NCBI GenBank assembly: GCA_964652835.1
Contig: CAZZCB010000002.1
Span: 584 to 64,583, forward strand
DNA from: an uncultured Candidatus Saccharibacteria bacterium
GTDB lineage: Bacteria > Patescibacteriota > Minisyncoccia > Phycocordibacterales > CSBR16-119
DNA: 64,000 bases
Direction of reading: 5' to 3'
Part shown: positions 9,757-29,112 of the stretch, one piece after another
How the letters are laid out: each line of letters begins with the position of its first letter
Numbering within the stretch: the first letter of the stretch is position 1
The notes under the pieces: model-generated
The model's database searches: none
Seen by the model: only the letters and a program-made list of their open reading frames with translations
What the model was told of the DNA's origin: nothing
Position numbers and translations under genes: made by a program

Positions 9757-9814
9757 GTAAATACATTTTGCAAAAAAAACAAAATTGTGTACAATACTTG
9801 CCATGCCCATAAAA

Positions 9815-9887: not shown

Positions 9888-9895
9888 CAACAAAA

Positions 9896-9932
9896 CAAAA
9901 AGCCATCTTGTATTTCAAGATGGCTTTTTGTT
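9896..9932 (+). terminator. Rho-independent terminator after the tRNA.
   Basis: AAAAAGCCATCTTG-tatttc-AAGATGGCTTTTTGTTTTG. Confidence 0.7.
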
Positions 9933-12443: not shown

Positions 12444-12634
12444 GTAATTTTGTTTTATTCCTAGGTGTAGACTTAAAATACTTAACCTGGAATTTGTCCG
12501 CAAGGACGAAAAAATAATAGTGAGCATATCGCTGTTATGAAAGACCGAAACCATATGGTTTCGGTCTTTCTCGTTTTGCTGTATTCCACAGTTTTCTGGC
12601 AGAAATATTGTTTTTTATTGGTATAATAAAAATA

Positions 12635-15553
12635 ATGAGGAAAAAAATATCTTTTTTAATTTTAACTATTCTAGCTGTCGGCAGTTTGTATTTCTTAGCT
12701 TTCCCTAAGGGGGATGAGGTTTTTGCGGGGGTTGGTTCAGTCATTGATGTTATTAAAATTGACTCAAGCACAACTAATGGCCCGACCACTTCGGCCGATG
12801 ATAATTACGGATACTCTGTAAGCAATATTGGCGATTTAAACAATGATGGAATTGATGATGTTGCTGTTGGCGCACCTGACGATGATGCCGGAGGATTTAG
12901 TCGAGGAGCGGTTCATATTCACTTTATGAACACAGACGGATCTATTGATTCTACAGTGGAAATAAACGACTTAACTGCGAATGGTCCCACACTTAGTAAT
13001 CTAGATCGTTACGGTACTTCTGTTACAGGTCTTGGCGATTTAAACAATGACGGCGTCATAGATATTGCCGTGGGAGCACCAAGAGATGACTCCGGAGGTG
13101 TTGACTTCGGTGCTTTCTATATTCACTTTATGAACACAGACGGATCTATTGATTCTACAGTGGAAATAAACGACTTAACTGCGAATGGTCCAGACTTTTC
13201 TGGGACGTGGCCTTATTTTGGTTCAAGTATTGACGGATCTGTGGATCTAAACGCAGATGGTGTGAATGATATTATTGTGGGCGCACCGCTTGATGATGAA
13301 AGTGGATTTAACTTCGGTGCTTTCTATATTCTATTTATGAACACGGATGGTTCTGTTGATTCGACTGTTAAAATAAACGACTTAACTACAAATGGTCCGG
13401 CCTTAGATGAAAGCTATTCTTATGGTGCGTCTGTTTCTTTTGTGGGTGACATAAATGATGACGGTGTTGTAGATATTGCAGTAGGGGCAGACAGTGACGG
13501 CTCTCTAGGCGCGGGTAGAGGGTCCATGTTTATTCACTTTATGAACATAGATGGCTCTATTGATTCTACTACCAAAATTAACGGTAACACCAGTAATGGA
13601 CCAACGCTTCTTAATAATGGTCTTTACGGTTCATCTATTAGAGGGATTGGGGATCTAAACGCAGATGGCGTGGAAGATATTGCTGTCGGGGCTCCCGGTG
13701 ACTCATTGTTGGGTGCCACATATTTACATTTTATGAATGAAGATGCTTCTATTTACAGGACATTTAAAATGACATCGGCAAACCAAGATGGACTGGTTCT
13801 GAGTTTAGGTGCCTCATATGGCTATTCCATTGCGCATTTGGGTGATTTTAATAGTGACGGCGTGGAAGATATTGCAGTTGGAGCTTTAAACGAAGAAGCC
13901 TTTTTTATCCATTTTCTGGAATTAACACCAGATGTTTTGGTTACTCAAACAGGATCAGATACTACTGTTTACGAATCAGGTCTGACAGACACAATCAATG
14001 TAGTGCTTGATTTCGTTTCCCCAAATGATCCCGTAACGGTTACGCTTGTAAGCAGTAGTCCAGATATGATTCTCGATCAAACAACTCTCGTTTTCGATAA
14101 TTTAAATTGGGATACTCCCCAAGCTGTTACCATATCTGCTGTAAATGATACCGAAGTGGAAGGAGCAGAGGTTGCAACCATTTCTTATATAGTTGAATCA
14201 GATGATGTTGCTTACGACGGTTACGCCATTTCTAACACATCTGTTAATATTGTAGACAATGATTCTGGTGTTCTCTATACTATTATTATGGATTATGGAA
14301 GTTATGATCTTTCTGAGGACGGAGATGTGAATATTGTAGACGTAGTTCTCTCGGGTGACCCAGGGGATGATGTTACTGTTACTCTTATCCCAGACGATCA
14401 GATTACACTAGATATTGAGGAATTATTTTTTACATCCGGAGACTGGGACCTTCCTCAGACAGTAACTATCACAGCAATCGACGACCTTGATGTTGAAGGT
14501 CTTCACGATGGTCTTATATCTTCAACTTCTTCTTCATTGAACCCAGATTTTAATAATCTTTCTATTGCCGATGTATCTCTTTTAATTCTAGATAACGATG
14601 TTGGTGTAGTTGTGACAGAAACAAATACCACTACTGAAGTCACAGAAGGGGGCGCCACAGACACTTTTAGTGTGGTGATGTCAACGCAGCCTACCGATGA
14701 CGTTGTGGTAACGATGTCTTCAGATGCGCAAATTTCTTTGGATGCAAATATTCTGACATTTACAACTCTAGATTGGGATACCTCGCAAGTGGTCACCGTA
14801 ACAGCCATAAACGACGCAGTTATAGAAGGTAACCACACTGGTCTTGTGGGATTTGCAGTCTCTTCTTTCGACGTAAACTACGATCTCTATTTATTAGAAG
14901 ATGTTACTGCATCTATAACAGATAACGACCCAGAACCTGAGCCAGATCCAGAGCCACAGGCTTCAGGGTCTTCAAGTAGTTCTGGTTTTATAATGCCTCA
15001 TATTCGCTTCAAGGACAAAATAAAGGACACAGATTTTCGGTTTGTAGATTTGGAAGCTTACGCGCCATACACCATAACTTACTTTGAAATATCAAACACT
15101 CCAGATTTCTTCATTAAAGAAACTTATCAAAGAGAATACACACAAAAAGATTTGTATTGGGATCTGTGTAAGGGTCTTTCCTCGTGCGTTTCTGGAGAAA
15201 AATTAGTTTACGCTCGTTTTTACAGCGACGTTGTCGGAGTTCGTGAAGATGTTATATCTATAAACTACAATCCAAAGCTTGAGTGTCCGTACTTTAAAGG
15301 ATTCCTGCGAAAAGGTTCAAAGACAAATGATCCATTAGAAGTGAAAAAAGCACAAGAATTCTTAAATAGGGAATTAAATATCAATCTAGACATAGACGGC
15401 ATTTTTGGAAAGTATACAGATAGGGCCGTTAGAGACTTCCAAGAAAAATATCCACAAGAAATCTTATTCCCATGGCAAGGGTTAACTAAATCAACAGGTT
15501 GGTGGTATATCACAACATCAAGATATGCAAATATTTTAATGGGATGTAAATAA
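12635..15553 (+). CDS. Large secreted FG-GAP/integrin-alpha-like repeat protein with Ig-like/Calx-like middle domains and a C-terminal peptidoglycan-binding-like module.
   Basis: Signal anchor MRKKISFLILTILAVGSLYF. At least 7 repeats of 'DLNNDGxxDxAVGAP.DD..G...GA..IHFMNTDGS'. A PEPEPDPEP linker, 'SGSSSSSG', then the C-terminal 'LEVKKAQEFLN...DGIFGKYTDRAVRDFQ' (PG_binding_1-like). Confidence 0.8.
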   Translation: MRKKISFLILTILAVGSLYFLAFPKGDEVFAGVGSVIDVIKIDSSTTNGPTTSADDNYGYSVSNIGDLNNDGIDDVAVGAPDDDAGGFSRGAVHIHFMNTDGSIDSTVEINDLTANGPTLSNLDRYGTSVTGLGDLNNDGVIDIAVGAPRDDSGGVDFGAFYIHFMNTDGSIDSTVEINDLTANGPDFSGTWPYFGSSIDGSVDLNADGVNDIIVGAPLDDESGFNFGAFYILFMNTDGSVDSTVKINDLTTNGPALDESYSYGASVSFVGDINDDGVVDIAVGADSDGSLGAGRGSMFIHFMNIDGSIDSTTKINGNTSNGPTLLNNGLYGSSIRGIGDLNADGVEDIAVGAPGDSLLGATYLHFMNEDASIYRTFKMTSANQDGLVLSLGASYGYSIAHLGDFNSDGVEDIAVGALNEEAFFIHFLELTPDVLVTQTGSDTTVYESGLTDTINVVLDFVSPNDPVTVTLVSSSPDMILDQTTLVFDNLNWDTPQAVTISAVNDTEVEGAEVATISYIVESDDVAYDGYAISNTSVNIVDNDSGVLYTIIMDYGSYDLSEDGDVNIVDVVLSGDPGDDVTVTLIPDDQITLDIEELFFTSGDWDLPQTVTITAIDDLDVEGLHDGLISSTSSSLNPDFNNLSIADVSLLILDNDVGVVVTETNTTTEVTEGGATDTFSVVMSTQPTDDVVVTMSSDAQISLDANILTFTTLDWDTSQVVTVTAINDAVIEGNHTGLVGFAVSSFDVNYDLYLLEDVTASITDNDPEPEPDPEPQASGSSSSSGFIMPHIRFKDKIKDTDFRFVDLEAYAPYTITYFEISNTPDFFIKETYQREYTQKDLYWDLCKGLSSCVSGEKLVYARFYSDVVGVREDVISINYNPKLECPYFKGFLRKGSKTNDPLEVKKAQEFLNRELNINLDIDGIFGKYTDRAVRDFQEKYPQEILFPWQGLTKSTGWWYITTSRYANILMGCK
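12917..13395 (+). repeat. Intragenic tandem repeats of about 204 bp, with two about-71-bp copies identical at the nucleotide level.
   Basis: 'ATTCACTTTATGAACACAGACGGATCTATTGATTCTACAGTGGAAATAAACGACTTAACTGCGAATGGTCC' occurs at about 12917-12987 and again at about 13121-13191. A diverged third copy is at about 13319-13395. Confidence 0.85.
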
Positions 15554-15556
15554 AAC

Positions 15557-15587
15557 AAAAGAGCCTGAAGGCTCTTTTGTTTTATTT
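15557..15587 (+). terminator. Rho-independent terminator.
   Basis: AAAGAGCC-tgaa-GGCTCTTT plus TGTTTTATTT. Confidence 0.65.
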
Positions 15588-15665
15588 GTGGATAACTAGA
15601 CACGAATATAAAAAATCATTGTTATAATAAAAACAATTATCAGTTAATTCTTAATTACTTTTATT

Positions 15666-17549
15666 ATGAATCAAAACAAAGAAGAGGGAGCTGTGGAGAT
15701 GAGCAAGGGGATGGTAGGTGTTGGGGTCGCTCTGGCACTTGCGCTAATTATTGGATTTTTTGTATATCCGAATATTCTTCATCAAAAAGGAGAACTTGCA
15801 CCAGACGCTCCAAAAAATTTGGCGGGTACAGCGGGAGATGGAATTCTTGATTTAACCTGGACTGCTCCAGCAGACGGAGGGTCTCCTATCACCTCATATA
15901 ATGTTAAATATGATGTTGTTGGTGGTGAAAATGAAACTATTGTTGATACTCGTACAAATAAAGCTTTCTATACTTTGACAGGGCTTACAAATGGTGAGAC
16001 TTATACGGTGTCTGTATCTGCGGTAAACGCAATAGGCGAGGGTCTGTATTCAGCTACGGCAGAATTTGGACTTGATGCGGTTGATGTGGGTGCGCCTCCA
16101 ACCGCCGCAACAAATCTTTCTGCTACAGGAGGTCAAAATAAAGTTAACTTAACCTGGGATGCTGCAGCAGAAAAAGGGTCTGCTATTACTGACTATATTG
16201 TTGGTTATAGAGTGAAAGAAAGTGGTCTTGATTACACAGAAATTTCTACCAAATCAACAAACACAGCATATTCAGTATTAGACCTTGCTGATGCTACTAT
16301 CTATGAGTTTGTTGTTTATGCTGTCAGTGATGCGGGAAATAGTGCGGCCTCTGCTGCTGCTACGGCTACCACTCTACCAGCTCTTGATCCTGGTGTAGAC
16401 CTTTCAATATCTACTGAGCCAACTGTTACCGTAACAAGTAACAGCGCGGAGATAACTTGGGGAACATCAAAATCAGCATCTTCTCAAGTTTACTACGGGG
16501 TAACAGACAGTATGGGGTCAATGACTGAAAAGATGAATACGACTCCGATGGTTAAAGGGCACACAGTAAGCCTCAGCTCCCTTGCTTCTTGTACGATCTA
16601 TGTTTACAAAGTTGCGTCTTTTGACTCTGAGGAAAATATGGTTGAAAGCACGGCTGGTGAATTCACCACTGCGGGCTGTAAAGGAGACGCTTCTGTGATA
16701 ACTTACTCAAAAGACAAAGCAACAGCAGATACTGGGGTTACAGTTACAGCTAAGGTTTCAGGAAGAGGTCTTACTGTTACAGTTCCAGCAGCGGTTGTTA
16801 CAGGATCAGACGTGGCAATCCAAGCACTAAAAGTTTCTAAAGATGAGGTTGTCGCAGAAATAGCGAAACCTGCTGGAAAAGAATGGATTGGTTCACCTTA
16901 CATCCTAAACGCTATCGAAAACGCATCCACAGAAGTAACATCTTTTGATAAGCCGGTAACAGTTTCTATAGATTACCAAAATGAAGATGTTGGAAATGTA
17001 GATCCAAATACGTTAAAGATTTGGCACTATGAAGATGGGGCGGGATGGAGAGAGTTATCTTCTTGTTCTACTTCGTTAAACGGTGTTGGTGGAACTGTGA
17101 CTTGTTCCACAACCTCATTCTCTGTGTTCGGTTTGTTTGGTGAAGAGGGTTCTGGTGGCGGTGATACTGGAGGTGGTGATAATGACCCCACGCCTTCTCC
17201 TTCAAGACCTTCTACTACAACAGGAAGTGTCCCTACAAATCCGATAGTTGTTAATCCTCCAATGGATAACAATGAATATAATTTTACAAAAAATCTATGG
17301 GTAGGAATTCGAGATATGGATGTAAAACTACTACAAAGATTTCTAAACCTAAAAGGATTCACTGTTTCAACAGACGGACCTGGATCAGCGGGGCAGGAAA
17401 CTGAATTCTTCGGAGCTAAAACAAAACAGGCTTTGATCAAGTTTCAAGAAGCTTACAAAGTAAATATTTTAACTCCGATAGGTCTTAATTTAGGAACAGG
17501 ATTCTTCGGGCCTCAGACAAGAAATTATATAAATTCAATGTCTAACTAA
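15666..17549 (+). CDS. Secreted fibronectin-III-repeat surface protein with a C-terminal peptidoglycan-binding-like module.
   Basis: N-terminal TM/signal. Two FN3-like units ('LDLTWTAPADGGSPITSYNVKYD', 'VNLTWDAAAEKGSAITDYIVGYR') and a PAP-N-like FN3 ('AEITWGTSKSASSQVYYG'). A Pro/Thr/Ser linker. C-terminal 'LLQRFLNLKGF...FGAKTKQALIKFQ'. Confidence 0.75.
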   Translation: MNQNKEEGAVEMSKGMVGVGVALALALIIGFFVYPNILHQKGELAPDAPKNLAGTAGDGILDLTWTAPADGGSPITSYNVKYDVVGGENETIVDTRTNKAFYTLTGLTNGETYTVSVSAVNAIGEGLYSATAEFGLDAVDVGAPPTAATNLSATGGQNKVNLTWDAAAEKGSAITDYIVGYRVKESGLDYTEISTKSTNTAYSVLDLADATIYEFVVYAVSDAGNSAASAAATATTLPALDPGVDLSISTEPTVTVTSNSAEITWGTSKSASSQVYYGVTDSMGSMTEKMNTTPMVKGHTVSLSSLASCTIYVYKVASFDSEENMVESTAGEFTTAGCKGDASVITYSKDKATADTGVTVTAKVSGRGLTVTVPAAVVTGSDVAIQALKVSKDEVVAEIAKPAGKEWIGSPYILNAIENASTEVTSFDKPVTVSIDYQNEDVGNVDPNTLKIWHYEDGAGWRELSSCSTSLNGVGGTVTCSTTSFSVFGLFGEEGSGGGDTGGGDNDPTPSPSRPSTTTGSVPTNPIVVNPPMDNNEYNFTKNLWVGIRDMDVKLLQRFLNLKGFTVSTDGPGSAGQETEFFGAKTKQALIKFQEAYKVNILTPIGLNLGTGFFGPQTRNYINSMSN

Positions 17550-17812
17550 ACCTAAAATAAGCTAAATAAAACAGGCACCTTTTTGACAAAGGTGCTTGTT
17601 TTAGTAATATATATAACGATATTTAGTAAGGTACTTGACAAATGGTATACATTTAGTGTATAATCCGTCATGTATAAAAACCCTAAAGAAAAAGTAATAA
17701 GGGTCAGCATTGTTCGTTCAGAGACACAATAAGAGACAAAAAGTCTTTTATAGGTGTCCTTTATCAGTTAGTTATTAGTAGAAAGCTTATTAGTTTTTAA
17801 AAGACATATTAT

Positions 17813-20806
17813 ATGAAGAAATTCAAGAAAAATATCTCAAAGACAATTTTCGCTTCATTCTTTGTTTTACAGTTTGTGGTATCGACAGCGTTCATGCCAC
17901 TTGCTGCTAACGCACAAGAAGTAGCGGCTGAAGAATCTTCGAAAGAAGAAGTCTCAGAGGCTCAAAAAGAGGAAGCGCCAGAGGTGACAGAAGAAGTTGT
18001 CTCAGACGTTAAAGAAGAAATTTTAATAGAAGACATAAAAGACTTAGAAGAGGTTGTCTCTGTCGAATCAACTACAGTTTCAGAAGAAATTGTCCTTGAT
18101 GAATCAGCGGCGCCTGTAAAAGAAACTGAAAGCCCTGTTTTCCAAACAGTAGGTGCTCTAGCTTCTGTAAAAGTTTGTAAGGTGATAATCGACTCAGAAG
18201 GAAATATCGTTTCTGACTGGTCAGCTTATCCTGGAGCAACTTTTTCTACAAATCTTAATTTTCAAGGGGCTCAGTACTCTTTTGAATTTTCAACATCTGG
18301 AGAAATAAATTACGCAGACGGGTATGCTTTCGCTGCTGTTTGTGATACCCAGGAATTTGCAATTGATACTTCAGTAGAAGGTCTTAAGTTTGTTAAATAT
18401 ACAGAAGAAGACCCTGCTGGACCATACTCTTGGGTAAGAAATTACTTCGAGGGTGACGCTCAAGGTGAAACTGGATTGTATAACAATCTTGGTGGGGCAA
18501 TGTTTGCGCCGTTCACATCAGAAGATACTGCTTATGACGGTCAATTCGAATTAAACGGAAATGATAGTGGTTTTGATACTACAACTCTTTTCCTTGTTAA
18601 CGAAGAAATAAAAACCGTTAACCCATCTTGTGATAAAGATTTAAATCTTATTACAAACGGAGGATTTGAAAATCCAAACGTTGGTGGAAACTGGAATATT
18701 TTCCAAGACGGAACATCTGGTCTTGGTTGGATGGTTGCTTGGGAAGGTTCTGCAGGAAATAATTCTGTAGCCAATCTTGAAATCCACGGAGGCGTGGCCG
18801 GATGGGAAGCTTCAGAAGGAAATCAATATGCAGAGCTTGACTCTGACTTTGATGGACCAACTGGCTCAATTCAAAATGAATCAGCATCAACTAGAATTTC
18901 ACAAGTATTAAACACTGTCCCTGGACAAACTTATGAAATATCTTTTGACTTTGCTGCTCGTCCTGGAACTGATTATGCTGACAATCGACTCGGACTATAT
19001 CTTGACGACGTTGCTTGGGATACAAGCTTTACGAGAACAAACGTTGACGGTACACAACCAAACTGGGTTACAATAACAAGAACTTTTACTGCTGTTAAAT
19101 CAACAACAATAATTTCTTTTGCTGACCTAGGTACTCCAGACTCTTTCGGAACTTTACTTGATAACGTTTCTGTAAAATGTATCGATGGAGGTCCAGTGGA
19201 TATAAATATTCCACCAAAAATAGTTGTTAACCCACTTGAAGTTTGTTTACCTCTAACTGCTACAACTTATGACTTCCTGGCAGGAGTTACAGGTGAAGAT
19301 GCAGAAGACGGAACAATTACTTTAACAGAGGCAAATTACACTCACAATATTATTTTTGGAACAGCTGGTACTTATACTATTAACTACACTGTAACTGATA
19401 GCGACGGCGCTACTGCGACTGACTCTCGAACAGTTTTTGTAAAAGAAAATTGCGGAGGTGAGCCAGAAGAATGTCCAGCAATCATTAGAGTTAGTGAAAA
19501 TGGAAGAGAAGGAATGGTAGAAGTTTCAAGACTTAACCCAAGATGGGTAAACTCAATCCCAGGAAGCTCTGCAGAATGGGTATGGAACAATGCTGCTATC
19601 CCAGTTTTCCCTGATCGACAAAACGGAGGAACATTCACAGTTACTGAAACATTTAATATTGTTGGTAACCCAGAAGCTTCTGAAATAAAGATCGCTGCTG
19701 ATAACGTGTACTCTGTGGTTGTAAACGGTAACACTGTTTACGGTAACCCAGCGCTAACACCAGCAGATATTGAAAACATTACATCTCCAGAGTCTCGATT
19801 CGGAGTTGTATACTCACACGCAATTCCAGCTAATTTACTAAACACTGGATCAAACACAATCGTAATACGAGCTGTTAATCAAGAGTGGCCACTAGTTCTA
19901 ACATCAGCAAATGTAGACACTAACCCAGCAGGATTAATGTATGCACTTACAGTAAACGAAGATTGTGATGACGGCGATGGTGGTGATGGAGGAGGAAGTG
20001 ACGATTTAACAGTCGTTGTTTCAGACTCTTGTGTTGAAAGAGGAACAGAAAACTTTGACTTTTTGTCAGGCATAACTGTTACTCACACACTTCTAAATGG
20101 TAATGTAACTCTTGTAGAAGGTGATAACGTAACAATTACAGAATCTGTTGACTTCAATGTAAACGGAAACTACACAGTAACTTACTCATTCAATATTCTA
20201 GGAGAACAAGTTTCAGAAGACCGAATAATCTCAATACAAGATGATTGTGGTAACGGTGGAGGCGGAGGAAATGGTGGAGGAGGTTCTTCTTCATCAGGTT
20301 CTCGAAGAAATTCTGACGGTGAAGTATTAGGTGCTACAAGTTGTGTTGCATTTACTACATACAACCGATCAGGAAACACAGGAGGAGAAATTAAAGCCCT
20401 ACAAACATTCCTAAACCTATACATGAACGCAGGATTAACAGTTGATGGAGTTTATGGAGCAACAACAGTACAAGCTGTTCACGATTTCCAAGCTTTCCAC
20501 TGGAAAGAAGTTATCGATCCATGGACACCACCACTTTCTCCTAACACTACAGGATGGCAATACAAGACAACAAGAATGACTATAAACGCTATTATTGATT
20601 GTCCAGAAGCCCCAGTATACCTAGAAGATCCAGGCGTGATGTACCAAGTACTAGAAGTAACAGACCAAAAAGAACTAACAACAGGCGAACTTGAAACAAT
20701 CTACAATTTACTAGCAGAGGCTCAGTCAGGAAATGTTCTTGGCGCTTCATCAGTAAATAGTATTGATTACTCAAATCCAAATTTTGACCTAATGTTCGGA
20801 AAATAA
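17813..20806 (+). CDS. Large secreted surface protein: acidic N-terminal region, a DUF642-like jelly-roll domain, Ig-like domains, and the C-terminal peptidoglycan-binding-like module. Paralog of 24159..26051.
   Basis: Signal peptide MKKFKKNISKTIFASFFVLQFVVSTAFMPLAANA. 'NGGFENP...GW...LEIHGG..GWEA.EG.QYAELDSD'. 'GGGGSSSSGSRRN' then 'GEIKALQTFLN...DGVYGATTVQAVHDFQ'. A strong terminator lies at 20860-20899. Confidence 0.8.
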   Translation: MKKFKKNISKTIFASFFVLQFVVSTAFMPLAANAQEVAAEESSKEEVSEAQKEEAPEVTEEVVSDVKEEILIEDIKDLEEVVSVESTTVSEEIVLDESAAPVKETESPVFQTVGALASVKVCKVIIDSEGNIVSDWSAYPGATFSTNLNFQGAQYSFEFSTSGEINYADGYAFAAVCDTQEFAIDTSVEGLKFVKYTEEDPAGPYSWVRNYFEGDAQGETGLYNNLGGAMFAPFTSEDTAYDGQFELNGNDSGFDTTTLFLVNEEIKTVNPSCDKDLNLITNGGFENPNVGGNWNIFQDGTSGLGWMVAWEGSAGNNSVANLEIHGGVAGWEASEGNQYAELDSDFDGPTGSIQNESASTRISQVLNTVPGQTYEISFDFAARPGTDYADNRLGLYLDDVAWDTSFTRTNVDGTQPNWVTITRTFTAVKSTTIISFADLGTPDSFGTLLDNVSVKCIDGGPVDINIPPKIVVNPLEVCLPLTATTYDFLAGVTGEDAEDGTITLTEANYTHNIIFGTAGTYTINYTVTDSDGATATDSRTVFVKENCGGEPEECPAIIRVSENGREGMVEVSRLNPRWVNSIPGSSAEWVWNNAAIPVFPDRQNGGTFTVTETFNIVGNPEASEIKIAADNVYSVVVNGNTVYGNPALTPADIENITSPESRFGVVYSHAIPANLLNTGSNTIVIRAVNQEWPLVLTSANVDTNPAGLMYALTVNEDCDDGDGGDGGGSDDLTVVVSDSCVERGTENFDFLSGITVTHTLLNGNVTLVEGDNVTITESVDFNVNGNYTVTYSFNILGEQVSEDRIISIQDDCGNGGGGGNGGGGSSSSGSRRNSDGEVLGATSCVAFTTYNRSGNTGGEIKALQTFLNLYMNAGLTVDGVYGATTVQAVHDFQAFHWKEVIDPWTPPLSPNTTGWQYKTTRMTINAIIDCPEAPVYLEDPGVMYQVLEVTDQKELTTGELETIYNLLAEAQSGNVLGASSVNSIDYSNPNFDLMFGK

Positions 20807-20955
20807 AACTAAACAAACAGAAGTAAGATTTGTTCTTGATGTAAAATGTACTTTATACAAAAGACCCGCCGGCGCTTGCGCCGGCGGGTCTTTTGTTTTC
20901 CACAAACTTTTAAAATATTTTTATTTTTTAATTGCTATAATATAAACAGATATTT

Positions 20956-21453
20956 ATGAAAAATAAAAGTTTTTCAAAAACCAAATTTAACATTGCTTGG
21001 GCTTCTATCGTCACTATCTTTATTGGCGCTGTTGTTTATGTACCAGCGCTCAAGTTTTCTCAAAAAGAAAAAGAAGTTGTTTACTATAGAGTTCCTGTTT
21101 TTGTTAACATGACGCCTTCTACTGAAAATGGAGGTCAGCCTACAAATTCAGAGTCAGAAAAAGAAGAACCTTTAATAAAAGTATCTAATTCTCGTATCAC
21201 TAAAGATTTAAAATTAGGTGACGTTGACGAAGAAGTTAAGCTCCTACAAGAGTATCTTAATGGTAGAGGATTTCTTGTTGCAGAGTCTGGACCTGGCTCA
21301 CCAGGTCAAGAGACGACAAGGTTCGGCGCCGGAACTCGCGACGCCCTGATAAAGTTCCAAGAAGCAAATGCGGAGCTTATCCTAAAACCTTTTGGTCTAA
21401 AAGAGGGAACAGGAGTGGTGGGTAAAATGACAAGAGATTTAATTAACTCATAA
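20956..21453 (+). CDS. Small membrane-anchored protein with a peptidoglycan-binding-like C-terminal module.
   Basis: N-terminal TM (IAWASIVTIFIGAVVYV). C-terminal 'VKLLQEYLNGRGFLVAESGPGSPGQETTRFGAGTRDALIKFQ' is nearly the same module as the 15666 gene's C-terminus. Confidence 0.6.
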   Translation: MKNKSFSKTKFNIAWASIVTIFIGAVVYVPALKFSQKEKEVVYYRVPVFVNMTPSTENGGQPTNSESEKEEPLIKVSNSRITKDLKLGDVDEEVKLLQEYLNGRGFLVAESGPGSPGQETTRFGAGTRDALIKFQEANAELILKPFGLKEGTGVVGKMTRDLINS

Positions 21454-21456
21454 TAT

Positions 21457-22824
21457 ATGAAAAAAATATTTACAGTGTTCTTACTAGCAGTGATTTATTT
21501 CGCTCCTTTTTCTGCTCGTGCAGAAAGCATTCCCCCTTCAGCTCCGCTTAATTTAGAGATTACAAACCTCGGAGATTTAACAGTCATGCTTTCTTGGGAT
21601 CCGCCGGCATCAGAAGGTGATTCACCAGTGGGTGGGTACATTATTTACTATGTAGAAAGGGTTTACGGTGATACTTTTATGATAGAGGGTCCAGTTACAA
21701 CTTTCACTACGGGAAAATTAAAGGCTGGAGCTTCTTATGACTTCTGGGTTGTTGCATATAACGCCTATGGGGAAGGTGACATATCAGAGAGAGTTAAAGT
21801 CGTGCCCACAGAAGACGTTACTGGGCCTGTTATAACAGTAGCTCCACAAGTTTCTTCTGTAACAGACAAAACTGCAAATATATATTGGGAAACAGACGAA
21901 TATGCTTCTACATATTTAAATTTTGATGTCCATGGAAATGGTCCACACAACTCAATAAATATTAAAGGTCTAAGTCTTACTCACGATGTTTCCTTAAGTG
22001 GTCTTTTGCCTTGTACTACTTATTTTTACAACGTTACGAGTTCTGATGCCGCTTCAAATACCGTAAGGTCGGATGTAAGTTCGTTCAAGACTAACGGATG
22101 CCTCGGCGCTATTTTAGATGAAATAGAAAGTAGTCTCGGTCTTCCAGTCGATTCGCTGTCTGTAAATTTTGAAAGAAGTGGTGTTGAGGTTTCTCTTCTT
22201 CCAGATTCTTTTGATCTAGAATCTATTTTCCAAATTAAAAAATTAAGCATAGCCGATGTCGATGCAAACGTCGGATGTCCAGCCGGAAACAAACCTATCG
22301 GAGGTCGGATCTACGATATAAAACTTCTAGAAGAATATGACAGACAAGCATCTCTTAAAAAACCAGCGACGGTAACAATGTCTTACGACCACTCAGAACT
22401 CTCTGGTGTTGATGAATCTTTGATCTCAATGTTCCACTACACAGACGAGTCAGGATGGGTAAAGCTTAACTCTTGTACCTTGGACAATGAAAGAGATGAG
22501 ATAACTTGTGAGACAGAGAGCTTTTCAAAATTTATGATTTCTTTTGGTGAAGAATATAAATGCAAGCCTCTTATGAAAAATCTTTCATTTGGAAGCTATC
22601 ATGTAGATGTATTTTCTCTTCAGGAATTTTTAAATAAAAATGGTTTTATGGATTCTTTTAAAGATTCTACTTTTAAGGGGGTAGAAGAGAAGAGGTTATT
22701 CGATGGAAAAACCGCCAAGGCTCTCCGCAGTTTCCAGGAAGCCTCTGGGATAAATGGAATAGAAAAAACACTCAGATTTCTGGGTCCAAAAACAAGAGAT
22801 TTTATAAATAACCAAAATAAATAG
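21457..22824 (+). CDS. Secreted FN3 / purple-acid-phosphatase-N-like repeat protein with a peptidoglycan-binding-like C-terminus.
   Basis: Signal peptide. 'LTVMLSWDPPASEGDSPVGGYIIYY' (FN3), 'ANIYWETDEYASTYLNFDVHG' (PAP-N-like). C-terminal 'LQEFLNKNGF...GKTAKALRSFQ'. Confidence 0.7.
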   Translation: MKKIFTVFLLAVIYFAPFSARAESIPPSAPLNLEITNLGDLTVMLSWDPPASEGDSPVGGYIIYYVERVYGDTFMIEGPVTTFTTGKLKAGASYDFWVVAYNAYGEGDISERVKVVPTEDVTGPVITVAPQVSSVTDKTANIYWETDEYASTYLNFDVHGNGPHNSINIKGLSLTHDVSLSGLLPCTTYFYNVTSSDAASNTVRSDVSSFKTNGCLGAILDEIESSLGLPVDSLSVNFERSGVEVSLLPDSFDLESIFQIKKLSIADVDANVGCPAGNKPIGGRIYDIKLLEEYDRQASLKKPATVTMSYDHSELSGVDESLISMFHYTDESGWVKLNSCTLDNERDEITCETESFSKFMISFGEEYKCKPLMKNLSFGSYHVDVFSLQEFLNKNGFMDSFKDSTFKGVEEKRLFDGKTAKALRSFQEASGINGIEKTLRFLGPKTRDFINNQNK

Positions 22825-22904
22825 TTAAATATCAAAAATATTGGTAAAATTAGTCTAGTGAACTAGGTACTTGATTTTTATTTTATTTATGTTATAATAT
22901 AGAG

Positions 22905-24044
22905 ATGAAAAAAAGCTTTAAAAAATACTTTATCCCAAACCAAGAAAACGACCATAAACCTCACTTTCTAAGAGAAAGGTCTGTTCTTGTTATTTTGGCT
23001 ATTGCCTCAATACTTTTATTCGCCTCAGTCATCGGTACTTACGTTGTTAAAAACTCAAAATTCTTAGCTGCTATACAATCAGCCTTTTTGGTTGATCTTG
23101 CAAACGAAGACAGGGCAGAGCAAGGTGCTGGCAAGCTTGTTATGAACGACGAACTTGTCTTAGCTGCTCAGTTAAAAGCAAATGATATGGCACAAAAAAG
23201 TTACTTTGCCCACACGAGCCCTGAAGGCTTAACTCCTTGGCATTGGTTCGGACAAGCTGGCTACGACTATATCTACGCTGGAGAAAACTTGGCTGTTAAC
23301 TTCAATAGATCTGAAGATGTTCAAAGAGCGTGGATGAATTCACCTCTACACCGAGCAAACATTTTGAATAATAGATATAAAGAAATCGGTATCGCTACTG
23401 CAGAAGGTATGTATAAGGGTGAAAAGACAACCTTCGTTGTTCAGATGTTCGGAACGCCGACTACTACAAATCTTAATACTACTCCCGCCCCTCAAACAGC
23501 GTCAGTAAATGATATTCCCGACGCAGAGGAGCCAGCAGAGCTCGTCGCTTCTGTTGATTTAAATCCAGAGGTGGAAGGAGAATCTATTGTAAAACCTGAA
23601 GTTAAAAAAGAAGCCCCGGTAGAATCTACGCCAGAGCCTTCTGTAAAAACTCAAACAAAAGTTGCGCAGATAGAAAAACCAACTCAGGCCGAAACTAAAA
23701 CAGAAGTTTCTACAGAGGTGTCTGGTCCTGAAAACATTTTCACTGAGACAACAAACCCTCTATACGAAGGTCAGAATGTCGCCGGAGCGGAAGACCCTCA
23801 AACTGAAGTAACTTATACAAATTGGTTTGAAAGATTTTTAGTGAATCCTGGAGATGCGGTAAACAAAGCTTATGTAATACTCTTCGTAATAATCCTATTT
23901 TCTATAATTCTGAAGATATTTATCGCGATAAATAAGCAACATCCAAAAAATATTGCTTACGGAGTATTGCTCCTAATCCTGGTTCTGATATTTATGTATA
24001 TCAACCAAGAGATATTCATACAGCCAGTAGTGGCATCAGTCTAA
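22905..24044 (+). CDS. CAP/SCP/PR-1 (YkwD-like) domain protein with an N-terminal TM, a Thr/Pro/Glu-rich linker and a C-terminal TM.
   Basis: 'LAAQLKANDMAQKSYFAHTSPEGLTPWHWFGQAGYDYIYAGENLAVNFNRSEDVQRAWMNSPLHRANIL' matches the CAP-domain consensus (GENIA...WMNSPGHRANIL). Confidence 0.75.
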   Translation: MKKSFKKYFIPNQENDHKPHFLRERSVLVILAIASILLFASVIGTYVVKNSKFLAAIQSAFLVDLANEDRAEQGAGKLVMNDELVLAAQLKANDMAQKSYFAHTSPEGLTPWHWFGQAGYDYIYAGENLAVNFNRSEDVQRAWMNSPLHRANILNNRYKEIGIATAEGMYKGEKTTFVVQMFGTPTTTNLNTTPAPQTASVNDIPDAEEPAELVASVDLNPEVEGESIVKPEVKKEAPVESTPEPSVKTQTKVAQIEKPTQAETKTEVSTEVSGPENIFTETTNPLYEGQNVAGAEDPQTEVTYTNWFERFLVNPGDAVNKAYVILFVIILFSIILKIFIAINKQHPKNIAYGVLLLILVLIFMYINQEIFIQPVVASV

Positions 24045-24158
24045 TAAAACAAAACAAAAAATACCGTATGTCAATACGGTATTTTTGTTGACAACATGAA
24101 AATATCAGAACATAATGATAAATAAGGAAGATTACTTTTAATAAAAGTTCTTAAGGGC

Positions 24159-26051
24159 ATGCAAATGTCATATTTATCATTTAATTTTATTAATATTATG
24201 AAAAGAAATATTTTAACTAAGGTTTTGAGTTTGTTTACTATATTTGCGATGACTTTTAACGTCGCTTTTGCAGCTAACGAAACTATTACTATTTGTCACG
24301 TTCCACCGGGAAATGAGGGAAATCCTCAAACTTTGAATATATCTATTAATGCTTGGGAAAACGCTCATGATTCTGGAACGGGCGAGCATTCAAACGATTA
24401 TGAAGGGCCATGTGATGGCGATGAAGAACCAGCACCCTTGGTTTGTGCGGAAAATCTAAGCATAGTAAATGGTGGTTTTGAAAACCCTTTAGTAGGGAAT
24501 GAATCAGGATGGCAACTTTTCCCAAACGGAACAGTTGATTTGGGCTGGACGGTTACTTGGGTTTCTCCAGATGGAAATGCTCCATCAGAGGCAAACCTAG
24601 AAATTCACGGCGGTGTTAATGGATGGGAAGCTTTAGAAGGAGGGCAATACGCAGAGCTTGGATCAGATTATGGAGACCCTGCAGGAGGATTAGCTGCGAC
24701 TAAAATTTCTCAAGAATTCGATACAATAGAAGGAGCCACTTATGAGATTGCTTACTCTTTTGCTGCAAGACCAAACACATCAGAAGATGAAAATATTTTA
24801 AAAGTTTACATAAATGGTGACGAAGTAGAGTCTCATGGGCCAGTTGCCGGAGGAGAATCTAATCTTTGGTCTACTTACTTTATTGAATTCGCAGCCACAG
24901 GAGACTCAACAGAAATTTCTTTTGAAGACGCGGGAACAGTAAATTCAGTCGGAACATTTCTAGATGATGTTTCTGTTATCTGTGTTTCTGATGCAGAAGT
25001 TCCAGAAGTATGTTTACCGATTGTTAGAATCAGTGAAAACGGAAGAGAAGGAATGGTAAAAGTTACAAAGGTTAACCCAAGATGGGTTCCTTCAATCGCC
25101 GGAACTAACGCTAAGTGGGTATGGAACAATGCATCAATACCAGTATTTCCAGACAGACAAGATGGTGGAGTGTTCACAGTTAATGAAACAATCAATATTG
25201 TAGGAAATCCACAAGACTCTGAAATCAAAATAGCTGCAGACAACGTATACTCTGTTGTTGTAAACGGTGACACTGTTTACGCTTACAGTGGTAACCCAGC
25301 TTTGACTCCAGGAGATATCGAAAATATTCCATCTACTGATTCTAAGTTTTCTGTTGTGCATGAACACACAATTCCAGCTAACTATTTAAACACAGGATTA
25401 AACACAATCAAGATAAGAGCTGTAAACCAAAAATGGACACCAGTTCTAACATCAGAAAGTACAGCTACAAACCCAGCAGGTTTAATGTATGCACTGACTA
25501 TTAATGAAGATTGTGATGGTGGGGGAGATCAAGAAAACGATGAACCAGCAGATGAACAACCAGAAGAAAATGACGAAAGTGAGCCAAACGATCCAGTTTC
25601 TGAAACTGAAGACGAATCTGTAAATATAGAAGAAGATAATAACCAAAATTCAGGAAGCTCTTCATCAGGCTCACGAGCCTCTGGAGGCGGAGCAGTTCTA
25701 GGAGCTTCTACAGAAGGAGAAGTTCTCGGAGCTTGTGTTCCTTTCGCTATGTATCACAAAAAAGGTGATGTTGGTGGGGAGGTTGCAAAAATCCAAGAAT
25801 TCTTAAATGAACAAATAAATGCAGGACTTACAGTTGACGGAGTTTATAACGAAGCAACTGAAAAAGCTGTTCACTCTTTCCAACAAAAATATTTCGAGCA
25901 AGTAATCTCACCTTGGGTTCCGTCATTTATGGCGAGAACAACAGGAAAGTGGTACAAGACAACTAGAATGATGGCAAACAAAATTATTGATTGTCCAGAA
26001 GCTCCAGTTTATCTTGAAGACCCAAAGATTATATACGAAGTTAAATGGTAA
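24159..26051 (+). CDS. Secreted surface protein with a DUF642-like jelly-roll domain, a conserved middle domain and a peptidoglycan-binding-like C-terminus. Paralog of 17813..20806.
   Basis: Signal anchor. 'NGGFENPLVGNESGWQLF...LEIHGGVNGWEALEGGQYAELGSD'. An about-170-aa block about 60% identical to the 17813 gene ('VRISENGREGMVKVTKVNPRWV...NPAGLMYALTINEDCD'). An acidic DE-rich linker, 'GSSSSGSRASGG', then 'EVAKIQEFLN...DGVYNEATEKAVHSFQ'. Confidence 0.8.
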   Translation: MQMSYLSFNFINIMKRNILTKVLSLFTIFAMTFNVAFAANETITICHVPPGNEGNPQTLNISINAWENAHDSGTGEHSNDYEGPCDGDEEPAPLVCAENLSIVNGGFENPLVGNESGWQLFPNGTVDLGWTVTWVSPDGNAPSEANLEIHGGVNGWEALEGGQYAELGSDYGDPAGGLAATKISQEFDTIEGATYEIAYSFAARPNTSEDENILKVYINGDEVESHGPVAGGESNLWSTYFIEFAATGDSTEISFEDAGTVNSVGTFLDDVSVICVSDAEVPEVCLPIVRISENGREGMVKVTKVNPRWVPSIAGTNAKWVWNNASIPVFPDRQDGGVFTVNETINIVGNPQDSEIKIAADNVYSVVVNGDTVYAYSGNPALTPGDIENIPSTDSKFSVVHEHTIPANYLNTGLNTIKIRAVNQKWTPVLTSESTATNPAGLMYALTINEDCDGGGDQENDEPADEQPEENDESEPNDPVSETEDESVNIEEDNNQNSGSSSSGSRASGGGAVLGASTEGEVLGACVPFAMYHKKGDVGGEVAKIQEFLNEQINAGLTVDGVYNEATEKAVHSFQQKYFEQVISPWVPSFMARTTGKWYKTTRMMANKIIDCPEAPVYLEDPKIIYEVKW

Positions 26052-26080
26052 AAACCTCAAAGTAACTAAAAAGTAATAGA

Positions 26081-26116
26081 AAAGCCCGGCGCGAAGCGCC
26101 GGGCTTTTCTATTTTG
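26081..26116 (+). terminator. Rho-independent terminator.
   Basis: AAAGCCCGGCGC-gaa-GCGCCGGGCTTTTCTATTTTG. Confidence 0.75.
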
Positions 26117-26148: not shown

Positions 26149-29112
26149 ATGGCAAAAGACTATAACCACAAAGAAATAGAACCGAAATGGCAGAAATTCT
26201 GGGAAGAAAATCACGTTTATAAAACAGAAGAAAATGGAAGTAAACCAAAACAATACATCTTAGATATGTTTCCATATCCTTCGGGGGCGGGACTTCACGT
26301 TGGCCACCCTCGCGGATACATCGGTTCTGACGTTCTTTCTCGTATGCGAAGAATGCAGGGCTTCAACGTTCTTCACCCGATGGGCTTTGACGCTTTCGGT
26401 CTTCCGGCTGAACAATACGCAATCCAAACTGGTGAGCATCCATCTGTTATCACAGAAAAAGCGATAGAGACATATAAAAAACAACTAAGCCTAATTGGTC
26501 TTTCGTATGATTGGTCTAGAGAAGTGGAGACGATAGATCCAGAGTACTACAAATGGACACAGTGGATTTTCCTAAAACTTTACGATTCTTATTTTGATGA
26601 AAAAGAAGGTAAAGCAAAACCTATCTCAGATCTTACCCTACGATTTGAAAAAGAAGACCCTTCTTGGAATTCAAAATCAGAAAAAGAAAAAGAGGATTTG
26701 CTGATGAATTACCGTTTGGCTTATGAAGGTTACAGTGAGGTGAACTGGTGTCCAGAGCTTGGCACAGTTTTGGCGAACGACGAAATAGTTGATGGTCCTG
26801 ACGGTAAACCTGTTTCAGAACGAGGCGGTTTTCCTGTTGAAAAGAAAAATATGCGTCAGTGGTTCCTGCGAATCACCGCGTACGCAGACAGACTTTTGTC
26901 TGGGCTTGAAACTGTATCTTGGCCAGAACACATAAAAGAAATTCAAAAGAACTGGATAGGGAAATCAGAAGGAGCTGAGATTGAATTTGCTTTTGCGGAA
27001 ACACCAGAGCATAAAATAAAAGTATTTACGACTCGCCCAGAAACTATTTTCGGTGCGACGTTTATTGCGGTGTCGGCCGGATATGCAAATGAGTGGCTTA
27101 AAAATGATTGGAACCCAAGCGATGAAATAAAAAACTATATTTCAAAAACTTTAAAAGAGAATGAAAACACCGACTTTAAAGAAAAAGAAAAAACTGGAGT
27201 TTGTGCTGACTTTGAAGTAGTAAATCCTGCGACAGGAGAAAATATTCCTGTTTGGATTACAAACTATGTTTTAGACGGAGTTGGAACTGGCGCGATAATG
27301 GCTGTTCCCGCACATGATGAAAGAGACTTTGAATTTGCAAAGAAGTTTGGGCTACAAATTAAACAAGTTATTGCACCAAGTTTTGTTGGGGATGGGATTA
27401 ACGCCCCGAGAGAGGGTGTTGAGACGATCGAAAGAAAAACCGTAACTGCTGTTATAAAAAATCCTAAAAATAACTTATATTTAGTTCTTAAAGAGAAAGA
27501 CAATAATGTTTTTGTTGGTGGCGGAGTAGACGACGGTGAAAGTGTAGAAGATGCTGTTAAAAGAGAGATTGTTGAAGAGACTGGATATAAAAATATTGAG
27601 ATAAAAACAAAAATGTTTGAGCATTTATTTGCTCATGGTTTTAGACATACAAAACAATTAAATCAAAAGACAGACGATACATTCTTCTTTATTGAGTTGT
27701 TAGACGAAGATAAAGTTGAAAGTGAAGCTGACACGGAAAGACATAATGTTTTGTGGGTCTCTGAGGGTGAAATAGATAAGGTTGTAACATGGGAGCACCA
27801 TAAATTTTTCTGGAATCTTTGGAAAAACGGAAAAATATTTGATGGAGAAGGTGTGCTGGTTAATTCAGCAGAATTTAATGGCCTAACGTCAGAAGAAGCA
27901 AAATCAAAAATCACAGAATTCGTGGGAGGGAAAATGGTTATGAAATACAAAATGCGTGATGCTATTTTTGCACGACAAAGATATTGGGGTGAGCCAATTC
28001 CACTTAAGCGTGTGGACGGTTTGATTAATCCTCTTTCTGAAAACGAGCTCCCACTAGAGCTTCCAAACGTTTCTTCATATAAACCGGCGGGGAATGGTGA
28101 ATCTCCACTTGCAGGCGTTTCTGAATGGGTAGAAAAAGGTTTTGAAACAAATACGATGCCTGGCTGGGCAGGATCTTCTTGGTATTTTTTGCGATATATG
28201 GATCCGAAAAACAGCCAAGCTTTTGCCGGAAAAGATGCGGTGAAATATTGGCAAGATGTGGACGTGTATGTTGGCGGCGCAGAACATGCGACAGGGCACC
28301 TTTTGTATTCACGTTTTTGGCATAAAGTTTTAAAAGATTTGGGATATGTTCCGACTGAAGAACCTTTTAAACTTTTGAAAAACCAAGGACTTATACTCGC
28401 AAGCGACGGAAGAAAAATGTCTAAGCGATGGGGAAATGTAGTGAACCCAGATGAGATGGTGGACCGTTTCGGTGCGGACTCTTTTAGACTTTATGAAATG
28501 TTTATCGGGCCTTTCGAACAATACACTTCTTGGAACACAGACGGACTTGTGGGAACAAGAAGATTTTTAGAACGTGTATGGAGAGCGAAAGAAAGAATCG
28601 GAGAAGAAAATAAAGAGGTTGATATTTTGGTAAATAAAACTATCAAGAAAATCACGGATGATATAGAAAATTTCAGATTTAATACTTCTGTTTCTTCGAT
28701 GATGATTTTGGTAAATAAAATGGAAGAAGCACCATCTTTTTCAAAAGAAAACTATTTAGATTTCCTAAAAATTCTTGCGCCATTTGCTCCGCATATGACA
28801 GAAGAACTTTGGCAAGAACTCGGAGAAGTTCGCGCCTTAAAGGATGCTGCGCGAACCGATTTTGCTAAATCGTCAATCCATCTTTCTGATTGGCCAAAAG
28901 CTGACGAATCAAAACTAAAAGATGAAAAAGTAAAAATAGCTGTTCAGGTAAACGGAAAAGTTCGCGACGAAATAGAAATCGCCCCTGACGCTTCTGAAGA
29001 AGAAGTTAACGATTTGGTTTTATCACGTCCTATTATTCAAGACTTCGTCCGTGAAGAAAAAATCAAAAAGTTTATTTACGTAAAAGGTAAGATAGTGAAC
29101 ATCGTTATCTAA
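26149..29112 (+). CDS. leuS: Leucyl-tRNA synthetase carrying a Nudix-hydrolase domain inserted in the CP1 editing domain.
   Basis: 'PYPSGAGLHVGHPRGY' (HIGH-class), editing motif 'TGAIMAVPAHDERDFEFA', 'KMSKRWGNV' (KMSKS). The inserted about-160 aa contain a canonical Nudix box 'GGGVDDGESVEDAVKREIVEETGY'. Confidence 0.93.
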   Translation: MAKDYNHKEIEPKWQKFWEENHVYKTEENGSKPKQYILDMFPYPSGAGLHVGHPRGYIGSDVLSRMRRMQGFNVLHPMGFDAFGLPAEQYAIQTGEHPSVITEKAIETYKKQLSLIGLSYDWSREVETIDPEYYKWTQWIFLKLYDSYFDEKEGKAKPISDLTLRFEKEDPSWNSKSEKEKEDLLMNYRLAYEGYSEVNWCPELGTVLANDEIVDGPDGKPVSERGGFPVEKKNMRQWFLRITAYADRLLSGLETVSWPEHIKEIQKNWIGKSEGAEIEFAFAETPEHKIKVFTTRPETIFGATFIAVSAGYANEWLKNDWNPSDEIKNYISKTLKENENTDFKEKEKTGVCADFEVVNPATGENIPVWITNYVLDGVGTGAIMAVPAHDERDFEFAKKFGLQIKQVIAPSFVGDGINAPREGVETIERKTVTAVIKNPKNNLYLVLKEKDNNVFVGGGVDDGESVEDAVKREIVEETGYKNIEIKTKMFEHLFAHGFRHTKQLNQKTDDTFFFIELLDEDKVESEADTERHNVLWVSEGEIDKVVTWEHHKFFWNLWKNGKIFDGEGVLVNSAEFNGLTSEEAKSKITEFVGGKMVMKYKMRDAIFARQRYWGEPIPLKRVDGLINPLSENELPLELPNVSSYKPAGNGESPLAGVSEWVEKGFETNTMPGWAGSSWYFLRYMDPKNSQAFAGKDAVKYWQDVDVYVGGAEHATGHLLYSRFWHKVLKDLGYVPTEEPFKLLKNQGLILASDGRKMSKRWGNVVNPDEMVDRFGADSFRLYEMFIGPFEQYTSWNTDGLVGTRRFLERVWRAKERIGEENKEVDILVNKTIKKITDDIENFRFNTSVSSMMILVNKMEEAPSFSKENYLDFLKILAPFAPHMTEELWQELGEVRALKDAARTDFAKSSIHLSDWPKADESKLKDEKVKIAVQVNGKVRDEIEIAPDASEEEVNDLVLSRPIIQDFVREEKIKKFIYVKGKIVNIVI

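Follow-up and report, generated by a model that had tools for sequence, protein, structure and literature searches.

Two paralogous modular surface proteins of a Candidatus Saccharibacteria bacterium share a probable CBM67-like lectin module

We analyzed a window of 64,000 nucleotides from an uncultured Candidatus Saccharibacteria bacterium and identified within it two genes, here called A and B, encoding modular surface proteins. Both ORFs are present on the plus strand at the coordinates that the earlier note had given. The neighboring genes from 12608 to 26051 all code for wall-anchored proteins, and the locus lies among cell-wall genes (Ddl, MurJ). The earlier note also described A and B as flanking a gene for a CAP-domain protein. 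B does directly follow the CAP gene, but two genes (20956-21453 and 21457-22824) part it from A, so the wording is loose. The CAP-domain gene is a conserved neighbor of CBM67-like-domain proteins on contigs L008, L081, L086 and L087. Sites matching the sigma-70 consensus precede A and B; the total count of such sites is no higher than in shuffled sequence. The features of the locus are as follows.

17635..17664, plus strand: candidate sigma-70-like promoter ahead of gene A (12/12), consensus match only
17813..20806, plus strand: gene A, 997 aa, modular surface protein (Pfam)
18164..18628, plus strand: N-terminal domain of A, aa ~118-272, sequence "VKVCKVIIDSEGN...", with homologous copies in the L008 orthologues
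18629..19180, plus strand: DUF642 / choice-of-anchor-C jelly roll of A (block 1), aa 273-456, C273/C456 (PF04862, TIGR04362)
19244..19453, plus strand: Ig-like module of A (Bact_surface_Ig-like), aa 478-547, C478/C547 (PF16403, 43.7 bits)
19466..19972, plus strand: CBM67-like lectin module of A (block 2), aa 552-720, C554/C718 (profile and fold comparisons)
20030..20248, plus strand: Big_3 Ig-like module of A, aa 740-812, C740/C812 (27.8 bits for PF07523 when this region is scanned by itself)
20342..20602, plus strand: PG_binding_1-type wall anchor of A (block 3), aa 844-930, C844/C930 (PF01471, 28.1 bits)
22905..24044, plus strand: gene for a CAP/SCP-domain membrane protein (PF00188, 64.4 bits)
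24088..24116, plus strand: candidate sigma-70-like promoter ahead of gene B (11/12), consensus match only
24159..26051, plus strand: gene B, 630 aa, modular surface protein (Pfam, BLASTP against A)
24444..24983, plus strand: DUF642 / choice-of-anchor-C jelly roll of B, aa 96-275, C96/C275 (PF04862, TIGR04362)
25005..25520, plus strand: CBM67-like lectin module of B, aa 283-454, C285/C452 (alignment with A and the family)
25734..25994, plus strand: PG_binding_1-type wall anchor of B, aa 526-612, C526/C612 (PF01471, 22.9 bits)
26075..26113, no strand assigned: terminator-like strong GC-rich hairpin in the space separating gene B from leuS, with a stem of 18 bp

Protein A consists of a signal peptide, an acidic low-complexity region, an unassigned N-terminal domain, the DUF642-like, Ig-like and CBM67-like modules, a second Ig-like module (Big_3), a Gly/Ser linker, the PG_binding_1 anchor and a C-terminal tail. 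The exact protein recurs on a Logan contig. Protein B is shorter, with a signal peptide, a small Cys/His motif, the DUF642-like and CBM67-like modules, an acidic linker and the anchor. A pair of cysteines, which probably forms a disulfide staple, brackets every module of both proteins. A hidden catalytic domain was looked for in the N-terminal domain of A, which has no Pfam match at E<=10 and no sequence match in the PDB.

The earlier note proposed a paralogous pair with three common blocks, and pairwise alignment bears this out. The two proteins match each other in BLASTP at 330 bits (E=2e-105, far beyond chance), the blocks are collinear, and all of the motifs quoted in that note are present. 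In local alignments, 92/194 residues are identical in block 1 (A273-465 / B96-280; 47%), 128/174 in block 2 (A551-722 / B283-457; 74%) and 73/134 in block 3 (A820-955 / B495-628; 54%). The identity of the middle block had been put at about 60% and is thus higher than supposed. This block also contains gene-conversion tracts between the paralogues (Fisher p=7e-21).

Block 1 had been recognized as a DUF642-like jelly roll. In profile searches, PF04862 scores 29.5 bits in B, above the cut-off of 27, and 25.5 bits in A, just below it. TIGR04362 matches both proteins over its full length with E~1e-17 (A, E=6e-17, positions 1-157 of 157; B, E=3e-17), at 62-63 bits compared with a cut-off of 120. Block 1 appears homologous to the DUF642/choice-of-anchor-C superfamily, though divergent. 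Block 3 matches PF01471 (PG_binding_1; gathering cut-off 23) at 28.1 bits in A and, borderline, at 22.9 bits in B. Alignment with six other anchors of the window yields the pattern 'LQxxLN ... T..AV..FQ ... TR..IN', which is common to these anchors and to a canonical full-length PG_binding_1 copy at 42028-44223 (53.6 bits). The anchors of A and B carry an insertion before the last helix, which in A reads 'KTTRMTINAII'. The suggestion of a C-terminal anchor holds, but that of an additional KTTRM tail does not: in the anchor alignment the stretch 'KTTRM..N.IIDC' forms the final PG_binding_1 helix, and it is rejected as a separate element. Both proteins have the tail 'PEAPVYLEDP' after the anchor.

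The middle block matches no Pfam or NCBIfam model at threshold, which agrees with the first half of the earlier statement that it has no nameable family and may be a novel binding domain. A word-index homologue search, with a single module or with a 40-sequence profile, returned one fragment, P0001. An exhaustive HMM search overturned the orphan impression that the word-index search alone would have left. In the PDB the 40-sequence family profile matches two characterized members, the Pleurotus ostreatus lectin POL (E=1.4e-14) and SaRha78A domain D (3w5m, residues 134-231; E=1.7e-11). A single family member matches 3w5m at E=2.2e-7, and profile-profile comparison of the family with CBM67/POL by hhalign gives 97.9%. 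The window copy alone reaches only E=1e-4 by pairwise BLASTP and has no match by phmmer over the whole PDB. AlphaFold2 with a three-sequence alignment gave a pLDDT of 48.7 and a usable model was obtained only from the 40-sequence alignment; in the fold search its jelly roll is closest to CBM67 structures. Profile-sequence, profile-profile and fold comparisons all point to CBM67/POL. By these comparisons the middle block is a divergent CBM67-like lectin member with a galactose-binding-domain-like fold, and the second half of the earlier statement, that of a novel domain, falls away.

Searched as a single sequence against Pfam, the window module has at best a weak match to PF14683 (PL4 domain III, 'CBM-like'), with 17.5 bits in A and 13.1 bits in B over a partial region (gathering score 27). 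This is the commonest sub-threshold match in the family (24/40 members), and the likeness is at the superfamily level only. PA14 (PF07691) has no match to the window copies at E<=10 and weak matches in 4/40 family members; real PA14 domains sit elsewhere in some family proteins, as distinct modules. PA14, the GH2 N-terminal domain (GH2_N), GH78 Bac_rhamnosid_N and PL4 domain III are rejected as the family of the module, because none reaches its Pfam gathering score and all of these galactose-binding-domain-like modules rank below CBM67/POL in the sequence and fold searches. The earlier note allowed for a fit to a described family such as PA14; the profile and fold searches do find one, and it is CBM67-like. 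'CBM67-like' has been listed as a lectin class without an InterPro entry (PMC11186620). Neither Pfam nor InterPro has a model for the class, so that routine annotation misses it. No paper joining CBM67 to Patescibacteria or CPR was found among the ten best-ranked of 713 literature matches.

CBM67-like lectins with solved structures bind L-rhamnose or Gal/GalNAc/GlcNAc-type sugars via a Ca2+ ion, which a D-D/D-N motif and a loop hold in place. The putative site residues are D630, N631, N689, N704 and P705 in A and D361, N362, N423, N438 and P439 in B, giving the motif D-N ... N ... N-P-A-G. D630-N631 and D361-N362 align with D179-N180 of SaRha78A and with the D-D pair of POL, the role of which has been described (PMC11512411). 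The aligned D-N, N and P residues are invariant in 40/40 family members, and the ten invariant positions of the family include Trp, Gly and Pro. N689 (A) and N423 (B) align with N228 of SaRha78A, and P705 and P439 with P233, both of which presumably act at its Ca2+/sugar site. The module is thus predicted to bind a terminal glycan sugar in a Ca2+-dependent manner. It differs from the CBM67 of SaRha78A in the loop from the conserved Asn to N-P-A-G (14 residues compared with four), in extra loops (A591-601 and A644-662), in the bracketing Cys pair, and in lying outside any enzyme. Pfam and NCBIfam reveal no catalytic domain in either protein, and the label used for POL, 'CBM67-like lectin domain', therefore suits the module better than CBM proper. 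POL (PDB 6KBJ, 6T0Q, 6T1D) and the shiitake lectin 'Shictin', both CBM67-like tandem-repeat fungal lectins, are close to the module.

The module is found in this lineage and in its sister L081, and is missing from both genes in the syntenic relatives L007-L009. In other family proteins it is combined with modules of adhesin type (PA14, Ig and DUF4114). It is a self-contained, Cys-bracketed cassette that is gained and lost, and gene conversion keeps the paralogue copies alike.

Membership in a known sugar-binding family makes the middle block a probable adhesion module. We consider A and B to be old paralogous, Sec-secreted, peptidoglycan-tethered, modular lectin-like adhesins, with a probability of roughly 0.6. 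A Sec-type signal peptide would export both proteins, and the C-terminal three-helix PG_binding_1 domain would hold them non-covalently on the cell's own peptidoglycan. The low-complexity Gly/Ser or acidic linker would form a stalk, displaying two jelly-roll modules of sugar-binding type, DUF642/choice-of-anchor-C and CBM67-like, whose target may be extracellular polysaccharide or the glycans on the surface of a host or partner cell. Modular adhesins of monoderm bacteria, with Ig, Cna-B or lectin modules, have the same layout of signal peptide, exchangeable beta-sandwiches, low-complexity stalk and C-terminal wall-binding domain. However, they use LPXTG, LysM or SH3b anchors, whereas A and B have a PG_binding_1 domain with an insertion and no LPXTG or sortase, and each of their modules lies between two paired cysteines.

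It is unlikely that A and B are instead envelope structural proteins whose modules bind the cell's own wall glycopolymers, such as secondary cell-wall polymers or S-layer glycans, in addition to the PG_binding_1 tether. Monoderm bacteria commonly have rhamnose-bearing wall polymers, and the wall-anchored neighbors and the position among Ddl and MurJ agree with such a role. However, the proteins already have a dedicated wall anchor, and the module is dispensable in the L007-L009 orthologues and shuffled with adhesin-type modules, so variable outward-facing specificity fits better than a core structural function. Decidedly unlikely is the capture of environmental polysaccharide (rhamnose-rich pectin or bacterial EPS) as a nutrient, with the modules acting as classical CBMs in trans with secreted enzymes. 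The rhamnosidase in which CBM67 was defined acts on rhamnose-containing polymers (PMC4690510). DUF642 is by its Pfam name a plant-cell-wall-associated family, but Pfam detects no glycoside hydrolase or lyase domain in A, B or the adjacent genes. CPR genomes are moreover generally poor in such enzymes.

The middle block might also be a ligand-free beta-sandwich spacer, with residues conserved for folding or metal-dependent stability only. Galactose-binding-domain-like domains in large surface proteins are often structural, and invariant Trp, Gly and Pro are typical of a fold core. We give this little credence, as the invariant polar D-N, N and N align with Ca2+/sugar-site residues of CBM67 and POL, and simple spacers in these proteins are Ig-like modules that are freely gained and lost. 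That the block represents a novel binding domain with no kinship to any described family is very improbable: the missing Pfam and NCBIfam models and the single word-index match would suit it, but the agreement on CBM67/POL and the existing lectin class stand against it.

Little has been learned about how ultra-small CPR/Patescibacteria recognize and attach to their hosts. With the domain named as a CBM67-like, probably Ca2+-dependent lectin, two 'hypothetical' proteins and about 360 related protein clusters become adhesin candidates that can be tested and that have a defined site motif. It is possible, though rather doubtful, that the module is a host-recognition cassette of CPR episymbionts, working with the CAP protein, whose sugar specificity helps to set which hosts can be attached. 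A Cys-stapled lectin unit would then be inserted into and lost from peptidoglycan-tethered surface proteins, with gene conversion homogenizing its copies, in a role similar to that of phage receptor-binding modules. The Cys-bracketed modules, their gain and loss, and the conversion between paralogues form a small, clear case of surface-repertoire diversification. The L081 orthologue of A lacks the Big_3 module, and in a four-sequence alignment the gap relative to A covers this module and spans from linker to linker.

Genes A and B of the window encode paralogous modular surface proteins that share a DUF642-like jelly roll (block 1), a middle block (block 2, the module) and a C-terminal anchor (block 3).

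Features of the A/B locus
17635-17664: promoter-like site upstream of A, near-consensus (12/12; consensus match only)
17813-20806, + strand: gene A, ORF of 997 aa
22905-24044: CAP gene, directly upstream of B
24088-24116: promoter-like site upstream of B, near-consensus (11/12; consensus match only)
24159-26051, + strand: gene B, ORF of 630 aa
26075-26113: strong hairpin 3' of B

That both are real ORFs sharing three blocks is confirmed by BLASTP (330 bits, E=2e-105) and by alignment of each block. Identity is 47% in block 1 (A273-465 vs B96-280), 54% in block 3 (A820-955 vs B495-628) and 74% in block 2 (A551-722 vs B283-457; 128/174), higher than the 60% or so estimated in an earlier note. 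The pair had also been described as flanking the CAP gene. B does follow it directly, but A lies three genes upstream, separated from it by a small PG_binding_1 protein and an fn3 protein. We read both N-termini (basic-hydrophobic-AxA) as signal-peptide-like. The nearest relatives of the adjacent LeuRS are in CPR/Patescibacteria MAGs labelled Paceibacterota or 'Saccharibacteria', with best-segment identities of 82% to contig L007 and 76% to L008 and L009. The window also encodes Ddl and MurJ, and the cell therefore makes peptidoglycan.

The DUF642-like reading of block 1 is upheld by matches to Pfam DUF642 (B 29.5 bits, A 25.5 bits; cut-off 27) and to the whole NCBIfam model TIGR04362, 'choice-of-anchor C' (62–63 bits, E~1e-17; model cut-off 120). 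Block 3 is a PG_binding_1 domain (Pfam; A 28.1 bits, B 22.9 bits). Of the seven genes spanning 12608-26051, five have this C-terminal domain above the Pfam cut-off; just under it are B, at 22.9 bits, and, at 18.9 bits, the fn3 protein (21457-22824). A further protein so anchored lies at 42028-44223. The CAP protein has membrane helices at its C-terminus instead. While the anchor noted earlier stands, its supposed 'KTTRM' tail does not: in an alignment of the window's seven C-terminal anchors, 'KTTRM..N.II' is the last-helix motif of the anchor family ('GPxTRxxIN'), displaced in A and B by an insertion ('PW.P....TTGW.Y'). The only tail peculiar to A and B is a stretch of ~15 aa, 'PEAPVYLEDP...'. 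Several of the window's PG_binding_1 anchors have an insertion before the last helix. The secreted proteins clustered at 12608-26051 and 42028-44223 combine FG-GAP, fn3/purple-acid-phosphatase-N-like, DUF642 and PD40 domains with C-terminal PG_binding_1, an ending that appears to be a general wall-anchoring device of the lineage.

Searched alone, the window module matches nothing above threshold in Pfam (sub-threshold PF14683, 17.5 bits) and nothing among PDB sequences, and a word-index homologue search returned one fragment. The middle block has relatives and is not an orphan: an HMM search run exhaustively over 1.84 billion representatives yielded 362 proteins with E<=1e-3, of which 65 had E<=1e-10, the best 150 holding 212 domain copies, often two or three in tandem. 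A Pfam scan of 20 family proteins places PG_binding_1 at the C-terminus of 16 and DUF642 in six, and others carry PA14, SpaA, DUF4114, Big_9 or fn3; the region homologous to the module reaches the gathering score of a Pfam family in none of the 20. Ten positions are invariant in a 40-sequence family alignment, A2 (W38, P69, D79, N80, N87, G128, N130, N138, N153 and P154), and all are kept in both window copies. One family protein of 429 aa (P0044; DUF642 and CBM67-like, without PG_binding_1) lies on an unrelated metagenome contig (L085 758-5307), where type IV pilus/T2SS genes (T2SSE, T2SSF, N_methyl pilin) follow it immediately downstream.

Used as a profile, A2 matches the Pleurotus ostreatus lectin POL (6kbj, 6t0q, 6t1d; E=1.4e-14) and also SaRha78A, a rhamnosidase from Streptomyces avermitilis (3w5m; E=1.7e-11), over residues 134-231, which we take to be its CBM67 module (domain D). 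With a single family member as query only 3w5m matched (residues 123-237, E=2.2e-7); hhalign of A2 to the SaRha78A segment gave a probability of 97.9% (E=3.3e-13). The invariant D-N corresponds to D179-N180 of SaRha78A and to the POL 'DD', N138 corresponds to N228, and N-P-A-G to G232-P233-A-G. Fujimoto et al. in 2013 reportedly identified N228 and the carbonyl of P233 as Ca2+ ligands. AlphaFold2 with A2 as its alignment predicts a confident beta-sandwich (pLDDT 87, pTM 0.86). Because long loops of low confidence (pLDDT 62-68) surround the predicted ligand site, sugar specificity is not predictable.

The CBM67 of SaRha78A is a Ca2+-dependent rhamnose-binding module (PMC4690510), and a D-D pair forms the Ca2+/sugar site of POL-type lectins (PMC11512411). 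A 2024 review describes a 'CBM67-like' lectin class, found in bacteria, archaea and fungi, whose ligands are Gal, GalNAc, GlcNAc and L-Rha and which has no defined InterPro family (PMC11186620); this explains why neither Pfam nor the earlier note could put a name to the block. The module belongs to this known family as a new, divergent bacterial member. The reading of A and B as DUF642-like surface paralogues holds; that of a possible novel binding domain gives way to the profile and hhalign matches. Since Pfam and NCBIfam detect no catalytic domain in A or B, we prefer the label 'CBM67-like lectin domain' to CBM in the strict CAZy sense. The top-ranked results of a literature search gave no description of such a module in PG_binding_1-anchored CPR surface proteins.

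The A orthologues of the window and of its sister genome L081 are 94-99% identical in nucleotides in blocks 1 and 3 and 82% in the module, with differences highest at aa 541-690. At aa 569-592 the L081 A is 96% identical to both B genes and the window A 69-76%; aa 633-648 form a converse tract in which window A resembles window B. A single A orthologue stands apart from the other A and both B genes, which agree, at 65/489 module sites and at 10/882 sites of the flanking blocks (Fisher p=7e-21). Sites that support orthology make up 17-28% of the flanks but 5% of the module. Gene conversion, recurring between the two paralogues, accounts for the much greater similarity of block 2. The DUF642 block of the B orthologues (window 24444-24998 vs L081 14759-16549) has 58% amino acid identity, compared with 95% for the A orthologues there; the outer domain of B evolves much faster or has been replaced.

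The module is a cassette that is also gained and lost. The whole locus is syntenic in L008, with orthologues of the fn3 protein, A, the small anchor protein, CAP, B and leuS, but its A orthologue has extra Ig-like repeats at the module's position and its B orthologue an unrelated domain in the middle. The A2 HMM finds no module copy in L007, L008 or L009 and exactly two in the 64-kb window. Both A and B orthologues of L081 carry it; on L087, a contig more distantly related, the corresponding CAP-to-leuS locus holds three copies, and in L086 the CAP gene adjoins a protein with three. A cysteine pair encloses every recognisable module (A: C273/C456, C478/C547, C554/C718, C740/C812 and C844/C930; B: C46/C85, C96/C275, C285/C452 and C526/C612), with six pairs in A, four in B and no cysteine unpaired. 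The Big_3 module (C740-C812) is absent from the L081 A orthologue, the gap running from linker to linker. We infer disulfide-stapled, exchangeable modules with adjacent termini, whose gain or loss would leave the neighbouring modules intact. Cysteine bracketing also occurs at the anchor of the FG-GAP protein (12608-15553).

Beyond the observed architecture, family assignment and cassette dynamics, we propose that A and B would be exported by Sec and tethered non-covalently to the cell's own peptidoglycan by PG_binding_1, with a Gly/Ser or acidic region as a flexible stalk and two lectin-type jelly rolls displayed outward. The CBM67-like module would bind a terminal sugar in a Ca2+-dependent manner and so let the cell adhere to host or partner-cell glycans; more speculatively, it may be a swappable cassette for host recognition. 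It is less likely that the modules bind the producer's own wall polymers, that the proteins capture polysaccharide or that the middle block is an inert spacer, because A and B already carry a dedicated anchor, relatives dispense with the module, and the polar residues under conservation line up with the ligand site.

A CAP/SCP-domain membrane protein directly adjoins a CBM67-like-domain protein in the window, L081, L086 and L087, a recurrent pairing that hints at a functional link. The L086 pair is not beside leuS, and L008 retains the CAP gene with the module absent.

CAP/SCP genes
Window: 22905-24044
L081: 13497-14639
L086: 11576-12805
L087: 1352-2461
L008: 6190-7281

The N-terminal domain of A (aa ~118-272, 18164-18628, ~155 aa; 'VKVCKVIIDSEGN...LFLVNEE') matches no Pfam family, even with the limit at E<=10, and no sequence in the PDB; L008 orthologues hold related copies of two kinds. 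B has a small Cys/His-rich motif at aa 41-87 (24279-24419; 'ETITICHVPPGNEGNPQTLNISINAWENAH...YEGPCDG') with no Pfam match. In the L008 B orthologue (7402-9921) it lies near the C-terminal linker rather than the N-terminus, and this difference in position indicates that it has been shuffled. The LeuRS of L008 (795 aa) lacks a NUDIX domain. That of the window (26149-29112) contains a NUDIX hydrolase domain (PF00293, 53 bits) as an insertion at aa 429-550, closely following the editing domain (aa 267-411), and NUDIX is also present in the L081 and L087 orthologues, in L087 apparently twice.
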